Of a stretch of DNA of 64,000 bases, positions 52,162 through 55,559 are shown piece after piece. A program made the translations under genes and the position numbers. The stretch's first letter is position 1. Each line of letters starts with the position of its first letter. Source of the DNA: Escherichia coli (GTDB taxonomy: Bacteria; Pseudomonadota; Gammaproteobacteria; Enterobacterales; Enterobacteriaceae). Location: NCBI RefSeq assembly GCF_030013205.1, contig NZ_CP122648.1. The stretch is one strand, 5' to 3'. Under the pieces are notes generated by a model. That model made no database searches, was not told the origin of the DNA, and worked only from the letters and a program-made list of their open reading frames with translations.

Positions 52162-52434
52162 ATGAGCGAAAGAGTGTTTGAGAAAGAACTATATTCTGAA
52201 TGGGTTATACGCAATAGTCTATATTGGATGACTCCGCTTACTCGATGGAAACTCCATGAAGACGTTTCCCACTGGATAATCTCTTTTGAAAACGATAATC
52301 CCAAATTCCTTTATGAATTCGATAGGCTGCTTAATGATTACTCTTTGCGAGAAAAGCTACAGCATAAAACAGGGGCGTTGAGAGACTCTATTGTCCATAA
52401 AGTGCTTCGCAGTGTTGATGAGAGGCTTTCATAA
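52162..52434 (+). CDS. hxsD: His-Xaa-Ser system small protein HxsD-like (LLNDYxLRE motif)
   Basis: ORF 52120..52434; ATG at 52162 with GGAAG ~10 nt upstream; LLNDYSLRE encoded at 52327-52353; stop overlaps next start (TAATGG). Confidence 0.65.
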   Translation: MSERVFEKELYSEWVIRNSLYWMTPLTRWKLHEDVSHWIISFENDNPKFLYEFDRLLNDYSLREKLQHKTGALRDSIVHKVLRSVDERLS

Positions 52435-53822
52435 TGGAATTGATGCCATTTAATTTTGACAGATTGCCTAATGGACAGGTGTTTATAAGCAACCTTGCAG
52501 GTTTTCATCATTTCATTGGTGAGCAAGACCTTATTGATCTTTCTGATGAGCGAATTAGTTCGGAGCAATCAAACGTGCTAGAAAGTAAGCTTTTCATAAC
52601 CAGTGAAAGCTCATCTGCTATAACTCCCTATGCTTTAAGTTCTGCTTTTGCAAAACGATTGATGAATGAACTGGCTGTCAGGCCAATTTTCATGATTGTA
52701 CCCACATTACGTTGTGACCATACATGCAAGTATTGCCAGGTTAGTAGAGCTTCTGTTAATGCCTCAGGTTACGACCTAAATCCTGAGCTCATCCCCGATA
52801 TTATTTCGGCTATTAAAAAACTATCAACGCCACCTTACAAAATAGAGATACAGGGTGGGGAGCCTCTCTTGCGGTTTGATTTAATTCAGAACATCTATGA
52901 TCAATGTGCTGAAACGCTGGGAAGAACCAATTTTGAGATGGTGGTGGCATCAAGTCTGTCTGTCTTGAATGAGGATATGATTGAATGGTCGAGAGACCGG
53001 AACATAACGTTCTCTGTGTCGCTTGATGGTGAGGAAGTTGTTCACAACAGTAATCGAATTCTTGGTCGTGGGCTTGCGTACAGTAGAACAGTGTCAGGGG
53101 TAGAGGCTATCAAACACTCTTTAGGTGCTGGCCGCGTTGCAACGGTTACTACAGTTACTAAAGAGCTTATCAGACGTCCTGAATCGATTGTTCAGGCTCA
53201 CTTGTCTCTTGGGCTCAAGGACATGTTTATCCGACCTGTTAGTCCCTATGGGTTTGCACAAAAAGCTTCTTTCACCTTTTCTATGGACGAATACTTCAGC
53301 TTCTATGCCTCGTTGATAGATGAAATCCTTAAGATTAATAATGAAGGGATAAGGGTTGTGGAACATTCGGCCTCCATTCATCTGAAAAGGATCTTCAATC
53401 CCGGTTTTAGTGGCTATGCGGATTTAAAGTCTCCAAGTGGAGTCGTGCTTAACAGTATTCTTTTCAATTATGACGGTCGAGTATATGGTAGCGATGAGAG
53501 CCGTATGTTGCAGAAGGTGAATCCTGAAACGGAGTTCAGTGCGGGTGAAGTTAAGACGCTATCATTTTCTGATAGTCCTTACTATAACGCAGTATTGACT
53601 TCATCGTTCAATTTTGCTCTGCCAGGTTGTGATACATGTGCATATCAACCATTTTGTGGTTCAGATCCATGCCAGAACATAAGTGTACAGGGTGAGCCTG
53701 TCGGCGATAGGAGTCGTTCAACGTTTTGTCAATATCACAAGGGGATGTTCAGGTATCTGATGAACTGCATCTCAGAGGGTGGTTCGAAGGCTGAGATGCT
53801 AAAAGGATGGGCATATGTCTGA
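52434..53822 (+). CDS. hxsB: radical SAM/SPASM-type enzyme, HxsB-like maturase
   Basis: 462-aa ORF; CX3CX2C (CDHTCKYC) at 52713-52736; C-terminal Cys cluster CDTCAYQPFCGSDPC. Confidence 0.8.
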   Translation: MELMPFNFDRLPNGQVFISNLAGFHHFIGEQDLIDLSDERISSEQSNVLESKLFITSESSSAITPYALSSAFAKRLMNELAVRPIFMIVPTLRCDHTCKYCQVSRASVNASGYDLNPELIPDIISAIKKLSTPPYKIEIQGGEPLLRFDLIQNIYDQCAETLGRTNFEMVVASSLSVLNEDMIEWSRDRNITFSVSLDGEEVVHNSNRILGRGLAYSRTVSGVEAIKHSLGAGRVATVTTVTKELIRRPESIVQAHLSLGLKDMFIRPVSPYGFAQKASFTFSMDEYFSFYASLIDEILKINNEGIRVVEHSASIHLKRIFNPGFSGYADLKSPSGVVLNSILFNYDGRVYGSDESRMLQKVNPETEFSAGEVKTLSFSDSPYYNAVLTSSFNFALPGCDTCAYQPFCGSDPCQNISVQGEPVGDRSRSTFCQYHKGMFRYLMNCISEGGSKAEMLKGWAYV

Positions 53823-54927
53823 GGTTATCAGGAACGATATCTTTCATTTTGCTTCTACAGAGAACGTGCCCACGGGGTTCTATCGGTTATGCAAACAAAA
53901 ACCAGTGAACCCTTTATTCTTTTTGCCCAATTTGCTAGTAGTTGCTGAGGGCAATAATGATGCCATTCCACCATGCTTTGATTTCTCTGTTATTAGCACT
54001 GAATTATTTGAGTCAATTGAAGATGGAGATATTGGGATAATCAACAATGGCAATATGATACGCGTTATTCTGTCACGCAAAGCCAACCATAATACTGTCT
54101 TAGTTACGGAACGCTGCAATAACTTGTGTCTGTTTTGTTCGCAGCCACCAAAGAAAATAAATGATGACTGGCTACTTACCCAATCAGCTCTTGCTATAGC
54201 TTCATTTGGCTTGAACGGAGTTGTTGGGGTCAGCGGTGGTGAACCTTTGCTATATGGGGATGACTTCCTTCACTTCATTGATTTTATCATCGAGAATTCA
54301 CCAGATACTGCTTTACATGTTTTAACAAACGGACGCAAATTTGCTGATACCAACTTTACACAGGAAATGGCAAAGCGAAGCAAAAAGATCAAAATCACCT
54401 TTGGTATCCCGCTCTACTCATCAAGACCACTTGTGCATGATCATCTGGTAGGGAGTGATGGCGCATTTAATGAAACGGTTAAAGGGTTAATCAATGCAGG
54501 AAACTTGGGGATTAATATCGAACTTAGAGTTATTCCTACACTGGCTAACTATACCGAATTGGATGATATCGTAGAATTCGCTGGCCGTGTGTTCTCCAAC
54601 ATCAATCAGATTTCCCTTATGGGGTTGGAGCCTATCGGTTGGGCACGAAAAAACTGGTCCACCATCTTCATTGATCACAGTAGTTATAGTGAGAAAATAA
54701 TCTCTGCCATAGACGCTGCATACAGGTCAGGCATACCTCTGACAATTTTTAATTATCCTTTGTGTTATCTTCCTGAAAGGGCTAGGGAGCTTGCTGTTCA
54801 GTCGATCTCTGATTGGAAAAATTACTATCCAAAAGAATGTGATGAATGTACTCAGAAGCCTTCCTGTGCTGGCTATTTCAGTTCCTCAAAAGGCCGTTTT
54901 CATCAATCACCGAGACCAATTTTATGA
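53815..54927 (+). CDS. hxsC: second radical SAM enzyme, HxsC-like maturase
   Basis: 370-aa ORF; CX3CX2C (CNNLCLFC) at 54115-54138; C-terminal Cys-rich segment; start overlaps hxsB stop. Confidence 0.8.
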   Translation: MSEVIRNDIFHFASTENVPTGFYRLCKQKPVNPLFFLPNLLVVAEGNNDAIPPCFDFSVISTELFESIEDGDIGIINNGNMIRVILSRKANHNTVLVTERCNNLCLFCSQPPKKINDDWLLTQSALAIASFGLNGVVGVSGGEPLLYGDDFLHFIDFIIENSPDTALHVLTNGRKFADTNFTQEMAKRSKKIKITFGIPLYSSRPLVHDHLVGSDGAFNETVKGLINAGNLGINIELRVIPTLANYTELDDIVEFAGRVFSNINQISLMGLEPIGWARKNWSTIFIDHSSYSEKIISAIDAAYRSGIPLTIFNYPLCYLPERARELAVQSISDWKNYYPKECDECTQKPSCAGYFSSSKGRFHQSPRPIL

Positions 54928-55559
54928 AAAAGTTTAATTTTGCTGCTCTACTTCCGGGATTTTTGGCTCTCAACAATTCTGTATGGGCAAGCGATTCATC
55001 TACAGGAGCGAGTGATTTACCTGGTATGACTCTTAATGAGCATGATTTAGTGATAGCTCCACTTAACACGGAAGTCCCATTTTATATCGCAGGGCATCGA
55101 AGCCATAGTTCTCATAGGAGCCATAGCTCTCATAGATCCTCATCAGGTGGTGGATACTATGGTGGAAGTACCCCCTATTATCCAAAAACATACAGCTCAC
55201 CAAGTTCATCTGGTTCTTCAAGTTCAGGTGCAAGTTCCTCATCGTCCTCTTCCTCGGTGCGTGCACTTCGTTCTAACGATAATAATAGAACCACTAACAC
55301 GAGTTCTGTTGGAACTTCAGAGGTTAACCGTACGAGTAATGGGCTTGCTTCTGATGCAGAGAAACGTAAGCGATTGATTATGCGAGTTCAGTTCGCATTG
55401 CTGGACAGGGGATTTTATAACGGAAATATTGACGGCATAATGGGGCCATCCACAAGGCTGTCTGTGAAAAATTACCGCATTGCGAATGGATTACCGATTC
55501 CTGCAACTGAAACACTCGACGCACAATTGTTAAATTCTTTGAATATATTAGCTCGCTAA
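54924..55559 (+). CDS. hxsA: secreted His-Xaa-Ser repeat protein with Ser-rich linker and C-terminal peptidoglycan-binding-type domain (HxsA-like)
   Basis: ATG at 54924 overlaps hxsC stop (ATGA); signal peptide MKKFNFAALLPGFLALNNSVWA; HRSHSSHRSHSSHRS at 55095-55139; C-terminal ..LLDRGFYNGNIDGIMGPST.. Confidence 0.8.
   Translation: MKKFNFAALLPGFLALNNSVWASDSSTGASDLPGMTLNEHDLVIAPLNTEVPFYIAGHRSHSSHRSHSSHRSSSGGGYYGGSTPYYPKTYSSPSSSGSSSSGASSSSSSSSVRALRSNDNNRTTNTSSVGTSEVNRTSNGLASDAEKRKRLIMRVQFALLDRGFYNGNIDGIMGPSTRLSVKNYRIANGLPIPATETLDAQLLNSLNILAR

Follow-up and report, generated by a model that had tools for sequence, protein, structure and literature searches.

The HXS system and other described relatives

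The Hxs gene set was described, reportedly by Haft and Basu, from comparative genomics. An experimental account comes from Li et al. (Nat Commun 2026, PMC13128918; preprint January 2026), who found the HXS system via a search for viperin homologs and cloned the hxsDBCA operon of Escherichia coli strain MEM (CP012378), a homolog of the operon analyzed here. The MEM operon blocks 110 of 113 coliphages, all four genes being needed for defense, and in its presence T7 DNA enters with a delay and infection fails while the cell survives (PMC13128918). HxsB, HxsC and HxsD are each needed for the maturation of the HxsA precursor, which consists of N-terminal processing and a +8 Da change (+C, -4H) on the SHRSS of the last HxS repeat; binding between HxsC and HxsD was detected by pull-down, and mutation of the Cys, LYW, LLNDYxLRE, SHRSS or HxS residues abolished or reduced function (PMC13128918). 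The authors assign maturation to the cytoplasm; where HxsB, HxsC and HxsD reside could not be determined (PMC13128918). Mature HxsA builds up in the periplasm, and defense depends on both the signal peptide and the peptidoglycan-binding region, with anchoring to peptidoglycan being the authors' model (PMC13128918). Periplasmic HxsA binds DNA in vitro, and the DNA-binding mode of action is based on this binding together with mutant phenotypes, with alternatives listed by the authors; electrostatic capture of the incoming DNA by HxsA and the chemistry of the +8 Da change are hypothetical in the paper (PMC13128918).

P2-family prophages, the group to which the carrier of the present operon belongs, are known to harbor defense hotspots. 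In the available portions of the respective publications, these are placed between gpA and gpQ (old/tin; Rousset 2022, PMC9122126) and at the fun locus (Vassallo 2022, PMC9519451), and a 2026 preprint refers to minor hotspots 'within the late genes', a description that could also cover the gap between gpD and ogr discussed below.

An intact hxsDBCA operon

The window, that is, the whole stretch of E. coli DNA that was analyzed (64,000 nucleotides), contains four intact ORFs on the plus strand at 52162–55559, with no frameshift. Families were assigned using the NCBIfam equivalog models with the NCBI curated cut-offs, and all four proteins score above these: the 90-aa accessory protein HxsD (52162–52434; TIGR03976, 91.2 bits against a cut-off of 50), the radical SAM (rSAM) maturases HxsB (52434–53822, 462 aa; TIGR03978, 558 bits against 370) and HxsC (53815–54927, 370 aa; TIGR03977, 398 bits against 268), and the 211-aa precursor of the secreted effector HxsA (54924–55559; TIGR03979, 159.5 bits against 121.65). 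The genes are adjacent on the same strand in the D-B-C-A order, which is found in 99.6% of the HXS systems (PMC13128918), and overlap by 1, 8 and 4 nt at the D/B, B/C and C/A junctions, respectively (TAATGG at 52432–52437, ATGTCTGA at 53815–53822 and ATGA at 54924–54927). In a genome that is 99.99% identical to the window, PGAP names the 52162–52434 ORF hxsD. The GC content of the operon is 42.0%, compared with 49.8% for the window.

HxsD carries the motifs LYW (residues 20–22) and LLNDYSLRE (56–64). The rSAM core motif CX3CX2C is present in both maturases, as CDHTCKYC at 94–101 of HxsB and as CNNLCLFC at 101–108 of HxsC, within the Pfam Radical_SAM domains at 88–229 and 96–255, respectively. 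Further cysteines are located toward the C-terminus, namely C399, C402, C408, C413, C432 and C445 in HxsB, where the first four form a CX2CX5CX4C cluster at 399–413, and C317, C342, C345 and C351 in HxsC, which, with only four C-terminal cysteines, appears twitch-like. HxsA starts with a signal-like sequence as judged by eye (residues 1–22, MKKFNFAALLPGFLALNNSVWA), followed by five contiguous HxS repeats at 58–72 (HRS-HSS-HRS-HSS-HRS; SHRSS at 69–73), a linker rich in Ser and, at the C-terminus, a peptidoglycan-binding domain. The latter is a weak match to Pfam PG_binding_1 (154–191, i-E 2.9e-4), and the similarity to the SleB peptidoglycan-binding domain (6tci, E 0.003) is consistent with it. 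Judged by profile scores and motifs, the resemblance of the four genes to the HXS families is far above what would be expected by chance.

An earlier note on this DNA had described, from the letters alone, four tightly coupled ORFs with these same overlaps, a D-B-C-A Hxs neighborhood, and the LLNDYSLRE, CX3CX2C and His-Xaa-Ser motifs; the overlaps are exact, the neighborhood is borne out by the equivalog scores, and all the motifs are located in the respective ORFs. Its description of two rSAM enzymes with CX3CX2C and C-terminal cysteines likewise holds, whereas the label 'SPASM/twitch-like' that it attached to them finds no counterpart in a Pfam SPASM (PF13186) match, Radical_SAM being the sole Pfam match in HxsB and HxsC. 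What remains behind the label are the C-terminal Cys clusters and partial alignments of HxsB to the NCBIfam models of SPASM maturases, which reach into the C-terminal region (positions 9–355 of 363 in the anSME model and 10–319 of 330 in the PapB model). The note also named ordinary housekeeping rSAM enzymes as the identity that would speak against its reading; an anSME or MoaA paralog is ruled out by the profile search, with 54 and 36 bits, respectively, against cut-offs of 349 and 325.

HxsB and HxsC most resemble peptide-modifying rSAM maturases, namely PapB, CbpB and anSME among profiles and CteB and SkfB among structures. The SPASM/twitch maturases (CteB, 5WGG; SkfB, 6EFN; PapB; anSME) share with HXS the rSAM core with CX3CX2C and C-terminal Cys clusters, a ribosomal protein substrate, and a small partner protein that binds one enzyme, HxsD in the case of HXS. 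However, the similarity to the solved structures is weak (E 8e-6 and 6e-4), and the HXS substrate, a secreted protein of 211 aa, has a peptidoglycan-binding domain and is not a short leader-core peptide; HXS also differs in requiring two distinct rSAM enzymes and in yielding an immune effector. The prokaryotic viperins (pVips), too, are rSAM enzymes involved in anti-phage defense, but here the matches are weak and confined to the core domain (23–29 bits; NF038283, 21 bits against a cut-off of 180), and pVips produce chain-terminating nucleotides whereas HXS modifies a protein. These pVip matches of 23–29 bits are all that PADLOC-DB v2 (2023) returns for the operon, the HXS model being absent from it; because this database is older than the HXS paper, the missing model says nothing against a defense function.

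The similarity to the MEM operon is much more detailed. Both consist of overlapping genes that encode these four families in a common order, and both have four Cys pairs at identical positions (C98/C101 and C399/C402 in HxsB, C105/C108 and C342/C345 in HxsC), the LYW and LLNDYxLRE motifs of HxsD, and, in HxsA, a signal sequence of 22 residues, five HxS repeats with SHRSS, and a domain that binds peptidoglycan. The window proteins retain most of the residues and motifs whose function was probed in PMC13128918. The differences are that the window HxsA consists of 211 aa compared with the reported 214 aa, that the HxsD numbering is shifted by 2 relative to the published one, and that the window copy is another allele, located in the gpD-ogr gap of a prophage remnant. 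As a minor observation, residues 48–78 of the window HxsA plus 7.97 Da compute to m/z 678.7 (z=5), compared with 714.5 reported for the published HxsA; residues 48–79 plus 7.97 and one oxidation (15.995) give 714.52 in a hand calculation, which is suggestive at most and to which we assign no weight.

The P88-like prophage remnant and its gpD-ogr gap

The operon resides in a P88-like prophage (Peduoviridae, P2-family) that is inserted between ihfA and btuC in a porcine-ETEC-type E. coli chromosome. Phage P88_4B11 and other prophages are homologous to the DNA up to 51950 and again from 55727, which delimits a cargo insert of 51951–55726 in the gpD-ogr gap of the phage backbone. The left flank is an ogr/Delta-like late-gene activator (51649–51909, minus strand; PGAP, in the genome 99.99% identical to the window), and beyond it, at the prophage end beside ihfA, lies a hok/gef-family toxin gene (51318–51458, minus strand; PGAP), also present in P88-like phages, where it is annotated as 'MokW-like host killing'; the hok-ogr segment is 93–97% identical at the DNA level to these phages. 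On the right, the gene for tail protein D (gpD, minus strand) is split: a 3' fragment encoding residues ~320–367 (55727–55869; 95.8% in a tblastn search with P88 gpD) is separated from a middle fragment, residues 88–327 (58568–59273; 97.1% in the same search), by an ISCro1 element of the IS66 family with tnpA, tnpB and tnpC (55870–58567, minus strand), as identified by PGAP and by comparison with uninterrupted gpD. The comparison with strain 00_3305, where gpD is uninterrupted, reveals the 8-bp target duplication CATGCATT at 55862–55869 and 58568–58575. Residues 1–87 of gpD are deleted, the tape-measure gene is shortened and joined to a fragment of IS3, and the sheath, tube and head genes are absent, so that the ISCro1 insertion and deletions have left the prophage a remnant. 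The placement of the operon between gpD and ogr of a P2-like remnant, next to hok, had been noticed earlier and is borne out by the flanking annotation and the homology breaks. An inversion of the FI-U tail block relative to gpD was considered and dropped, given that the divergent arrangement is native to P88-like phages.

The operon thus lies between conserved phage genes at a junction that is empty in related phages: 42 bp separate ogr from gpD in P88_4B11 and Chuche, and the junction is empty in 720 E. coli genomes. About 40% of the E. coli genomes that match an ogr/gpD junction probe lack the intact empty junction. In the sampled genomes, the gap holds one module each, which can be hxsDBCA, a DUF2971/PDC-S31 gene, a PIN-domain protein, a ParA-family protein or unknown genes, and a PADLOC defense-candidate gene occupies the same slot elsewhere. 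The gpD-ogr gap therefore looks like a variable cargo slot, a modest addition to the known picture, and one that may hold further candidate defense genes. As with the P2-family hotspots described in the available portions of the literature, a P2-family prophage carries a defense moron at a site where its relatives have other cargo, but the site differs from both the gpA-gpQ region and the fun locus, and those portions do not name the gpD-ogr gap as a defense hotspot. We tentatively propose, at somewhat less than an even chance, that this gap is a defense-cargo hotspot in P88-like prophages, in which case prophage-borne HXS would act as a broad superinfection-exclusion device. If so, HXS in E. 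coli would be essentially always associated with mobile elements, in contrast to the published description of the system as 'typically chromosomally encoded' (PMC13128918).

Distribution of hxs and the shared leader

The window operon is found with 100% identity in at least 12 complete genomes and with at least 99% identity in 45 genomes, and 43 genomes have an ogr|hxsD junction. Three viral contigs of IMG/VR (L010, L012 and L013) show the arrangement gpD-hxsACBD-ogr; gpD is full length in L010–L012 and interrupted in L013, and the L011 contig ends within hxsB. All examined E. coli copies of hxs are located on mobile elements, either a P88-like prophage or a mobilizable island integrated at ssrA, with ~70% of the copies on such islands, outside prophages; the sampled island copies adjoin other defense-type genes (ABC-three-component systems). 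A tblastn search of a phage collection with HxsC yielded no coliphage with hxsC, the only HxsC-type match coming from a Leptospira phage (35% identity) and the remaining ones being weaker rSAM matches, which implies that the isolated P88-like phages of this collection lack hxsC, whereas the prophage contigs of IMG/VR have hxs. HxsA homologs are widely distributed in Gammaproteobacteria, although the E. coli cluster was missing from the search result, low-complexity sequence being the probable reason. Among E. coli alleles, residues 1–110 of HxsA, including the repeats, are identical in the window, L002 and L003, despite DNA identities of 91% and 72%, respectively, of the latter two to the window, and differ at one residue in L004.

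Homology to the alleles on ssrA islands begins at 52058/52061 and ends at 55561/55562, so that a leader (52058–52161, plus strand) is shared with hxs operons in unrelated contexts. From this homology comparison, it is probably the native promoter region. It includes weak sigma-70-like sites at 52063–52091 and 52094–52121; given that a promoter and terminator scan of the region gave no more sites than the shuffled background, we make no claim of a promoter.

Predicted function of the operon and the question of its beneficiary

The reading that we hold with high confidence is that the window operon is an intact HXS anti-phage system, present as a moron between gpD and ogr in the remnant of a P88-like prophage. 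From equivalog-level homology and the conserved residues and motifs, this allele is predicted to work like the MEM operon. [quoted passage not shown] The operon is, accordingly, already explained, its function and outline mechanism having been published in early 2026. The earlier note had listed it as uncharacterized, with no experimental function known, which is outdated in view of the published function and partial mechanism of the homologous operon; its two suggestions, that the secreted repeat protein is a substrate of the rSAM pair and that the system may act against phages, agree with the later maturation experiments and phage-challenge data, respectively (PMC13128918).

A separate question, one of beneficiary and not of mechanism, is whether the operon mainly serves the prophage as a broad superinfection-exclusion module. 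The location inside a prophage at its ogr/att end, the viral contigs with full-length gpD, the variable cargo of the slot within this phage lineage and a mechanism at the step of DNA entry, like that of classical Sie systems, all point in this direction. The T4 Imm/Sp-type exclusion systems (discussed in PMC13128918) would, by analogy, share with the prophage-borne HXS of the window the action at the envelope on genome entry; in contrast to them, HXS has a broad spectrum not limited to close relatives (the 110/113 phages of PMC13128918), needs enzymatic maturation and also occurs on non-phage islands. We consider a primarily prophage-serving role rather unlikely, considering that most E. coli copies lie on the ssrA islands, that 77% are reported to lie outside predicted prophages (PMC13128918), and that the window prophage can no longer replicate, so that only the host can benefit now. 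The window operon is, in any event, a natural prophage-borne allele from porcine ETEC/STEC-type strains, which could be used to ask whether HXS works at native expression or serves superinfection exclusion in the P2 family.

It is improbable that the operon is a silent, decaying passenger, intact by virtue of recency and no longer expressed or useful. The decay of the surrounding prophage, with gpD shortened and interrupted by ISCro1, the tape-measure gene truncated and the sheath, tube and head genes gone, would fit such a state, as would the chance-level promoter signal and the IS insertions within hxsB or hxsC in other genomes (H32, H40 and H46), which indicate that loss of hxs is tolerated. 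However, none of the four ORFs is broken or frameshifted, many independent genomes carry them unchanged, and the published construct was active from its endogenous promoter (PMC13128918). Moreover, the operon and its 100-bp leader travel together among mobile elements that are unrelated to each other, a pattern that speaks for a selected module complete in itself.

Before 2026, a non-defense role of HxsA was an open reading. That HxsA is a modified secreted product with such a role (metal binding, envelope remodeling or a RiPP-like bioactive product) would be in line with the affinity of HxsB and HxsC to peptide-modifying maturases and with the richness of HxsA in His and Ser, but is now highly improbable, being largely refuted by the phage-challenge and DNA-entry data for the homologous E. 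coli operon (PMC13128918) and at odds with the peptidoglycan-binding domain in place of a leader-core layout, with the confinement of the examined E. coli copies to mobile elements, next to defense-type genes on the sampled islands, and with the defense-candidate gene found in the same prophage slot elsewhere.

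Identity of the hxs operon

The four overlapping plus-strand ORFs of the hxs operon, hxsD (52162-52434, 90 aa), hxsB (52434-53822, 462 aa), hxsC (53815-54927, 370 aa) and hxsA (54924-55559, 211 aa), were each assigned by the score of the product against its own NCBIfam equivalog model, which had to exceed the curated cut-off. All four proteins pass, with 91 bits against a cut-off of 50 for HxsD (TIGR03976), 558 against 370 for HxsB (TIGR03978), 398 against 268 for HxsC (TIGR03977) and 159.5 against 121.65 for HxsA (TIGR03979), in agreement with the HxsD-B-C-A identity proposed in the earlier note; PGAP gives the same four names to these genes on a chromosome that matches the window at 99.99%. 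The models for anaerobic sulfatase maturase (54 bits against a cut-off of 349) and MoaA (about 36 bits against 325) fall far short, so that the objection that the two enzymes could be housekeeping radical SAM proteins does not apply.

The details read from the sequence alone were accurate as well: the three stop/start overlaps lie exactly at the positions reported, and the listed motifs are all present in the translated ORFs, namely LLNDYSLRE at residues 56-64 of HxsD, CX3CX2C at 94-101 of HxsB and 101-108 of HxsC, a C-terminal Cys cluster in each enzyme, and, in HxsA, an N-terminus resembling a signal sequence and an uninterrupted run of five His-Xaa-Ser repeats at 58-72. HxsD additionally has LYW at 20-22, ahead of LLNDYSLRE. 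The Radical_SAM core was matched in both HxsB and HxsC and the SPASM domain of Pfam in neither; HxsB has an additional Pfam match, to the single-cluster family Fer4_12. Among the solved structures in PDB, the peptide maturases CteB and SkfB come closest to HxsB and HxsC, with weak E-values, and residues 154-191 of HxsA weakly match PG_binding_1 of Pfam, in agreement with the peptidoglycan (PG)-binding domain of SleB in PDB. The GC content of the operon is 42.0%, compared with 49.8% for the window, which fits horizontal acquisition.

A known anti-phage system

The window operon represents an already known system. A full-text search for experimental work on hxs retrieved a single study, that of Li et al. 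(Nat Commun 2026, PMC13128918), together with a bioRxiv preprint of January 2026, so the description of the system as uncharacterised no longer holds, and the two functional suggestions made with it, modification of a protein substrate and a possible anti-phage role, are both borne out for the operon of E. coli strain MEM. The cloned MEM hxsDBCA restricted 110 of the 113 coliphages challenged, the escapers being T4, one other Tequatrovirus and P1; defence required all four genes, phage adsorption was unchanged and there was no abortive-infection phenotype (PMC13128918). Escape mutations of T7 mapped to the ejectosome proteins gp15 and gp16, and T7 DNA entered late, at about 30-50 min instead of about 8-12 min. 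HxsA, which accumulates in the periplasm, is processed at the N-terminus and acquires +8 Da (of the +C/-4H type) on SHRSS; the processing requires HxsB, HxsC and HxsD with their Cys, LYW and LLNDYxLRE residues, and HxsD is a binding partner of HxsC. In HxsA, the signal peptide and the PG-binding region are both required, none of the five HxS repeats is dispensable, and the periplasmic protein showed DNA binding in vitro; these authors leave open what the modification is chemically and exactly how entry is blocked (PMC13128918).

The Cys residues mutated in MEM occur under the same numbers in window HxsB (C98/C101 and C399/C402) and HxsC (C105/C108 and C342/C345), the MEM HxsD motifs are found in window HxsD with a numbering offset of 2, and HxsA shares the 22-residue signal sequence, the five HxS repeats and SHRSS at 69-73, although it is 211 aa long compared with the 214 aa reported for MEM. 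Judged by its sequence, the window operon belongs to the HXS family in every testable feature, and we infer that this copy, too, would function in defence against phages.

With the window proteins as the reference, the products of three other E. coli alleles (L002, L003 and L006) show 62-81% identity for HxsD, 75-94% for HxsB, 80-94% for HxsC and 85-90% for HxsA. Residues 1-110 of HxsA (54924-55253), which comprise the signal sequence, the pro-region and the HxS repeats, are identical in the window, L002 and L003, the operons of the latter two being 91% and 72% identical to that of the window at the DNA level; in this segment, a fourth allele, L004, has one difference, and L006 lacks seven residues right after the signal sequence. 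In these alignments, constraint along the operon is very uneven, from the identical HxsA segment to 62-81% identity in HxsD. On a separate point, the published precursor of m/z 714.5 (z=5) was assigned to HxsA(48-78)+8, whereas the conserved E. coli 48-78 peptide plus 7.97 computes to 678.7; residues 48-79 plus 7.97 and one oxidation compute to 714.52. The mismatch may reflect a quirk of numbering or assignment in the paper, or a different tested allele.

Prophage setting

The stretch from 32100 to 64000 matches the E. coli chromosome K_EC180 at 99.99%, and the island that holds the operon lies between ihfA and btuC. To the left of hxs are ogr and hok, in a prophage end 93-97% identical to P88-like phages, among them P88, P88_4B11, Chuche and 500465-2, and to the right is gpD. 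Homology to the phage backbone ends at 51950 and restarts at 55727, which delimits an insert at 51951-55726; in P88_4B11 and Chuche, 42 bp separate gpD from ogr. Strains 00_3305 and A24, as well as IMG/VR viral contigs, have the same insert within much more complete prophages, and gpD is full-length in 00_3305 and in three of these contigs (L010-L012). In the window, residues 1-87 of gpD are lost, ISCro1 splits the rest of the gene, and genes for sheath, tube and head are missing. The prophage is a remnant, and the flanks, insert limits and gene losses corroborate its original description as a P2-like remnant with hxs between gpD and ogr, next to hok.

The ISCro1 element (IS66 family, 55870-58567) is bounded by an intact 8-bp target duplication, CATGCATT, at 55862-55869 and 58568-58575, which suggests that the element inserted recently; in a related genome (L025), ISCro1 lies near the same place, in the opposite orientation. 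Further along, a chimeric plus-strand ORF of 978 aa (59311-62247) joins an IS3-family transposase OrfA fragment in frame to a tape-measure gene without its N-terminus, the two parts being separate pseudogenes according to PGAP. In L004 (23628-24728, minus strand) and its equivalents, PGAP divides gpD into a 264-aa ‘VgrG/Pvc8 family’ protein and a small pseudogene; tblastn yields an uninterrupted 367-residue match to P88 gpD, and the RefSeq start call in these prophages looks too short. Elsewhere in the window, going by the PGAP annotation of the 99.99%-matching genome, yniD and thrS flank a type III effector gene, espL1 (about 41418-43316, minus strand), and a copy of IS1397 (IS3 family; about 1516-2864, plus strand) adjoins topB.

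An apparent cargo slot between gpD and ogr

What remains of value here is the prophage-borne hxs allele and, as a side observation, the gap that it occupies. A probe for the ogr|gpD junction matched 1,201 genomes, and in 720 of them the junction is contiguous and empty. The gaps of sampled genomes without the empty junction contain, besides hxs itself, a DUF2971 gene that matches the PADLOC candidate PDC-S31 (L017:5856-6641) and genes for a 500-aa PIN-domain protein (L022:6459-7961), a 352-aa ParA-family protein (L023:6475-7533) and hypothetical proteins of 384 aa (L024:6423-7577) and, in phage 500465-2, 340 aa (L007:6852-7874). Two defence hotspots of P2 have been named, gpA-gpQ and the fun locus, and a preprint of 2026 refers to further, minor hotspots within the late genes, so that the gpD-ogr slot may be partly known.

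Distribution in E. coli

The 5,426 complete E. coli genomes surveyed include 151 with an hxs match, and 45 of these 151 carry the window allele (at least 99% identity). The ogr|hxsD junction is found in 43 genomes, hxsA|TIGR04141 in 60, and hxsA|DUF6119 in 29 in full and in 46 with any match, counts that agree numerically with the published figure of 77% of hxs outside predicted prophages (PMC13128918). All three non-prophage alleles sampled reside in an ssrA-integrated island with integrases and a relaxase, and ABC-three-component genes are also present in two of the three, which suggests that the copies outside prophages belong to mobilisable islands rather than to the core chromosome. The unit that passes from one context to another, 52058-55562, consists of the four genes and a leader of about 100 bp.

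The gene after hxsA in the ssrA islands encodes a DUF6119 or TIGR04141 ‘sporadically distributed’ protein of ~540 aa (L002:18529-20172, L006:18509-20321, L003:17447-19054). It has no PADLOC match, does not accompany the prophage copy in the window and could be either an accessory linked to hxs or a defence gene in its own right. In three of the hxs matches (H32, H40 and H46; strains B1S11, OW968288 and EC21Z-048), hxsB or hxsC is interrupted by ISVsa5, IS2 or an IS3-family element, which suggests that HXS is occasionally inactivated.
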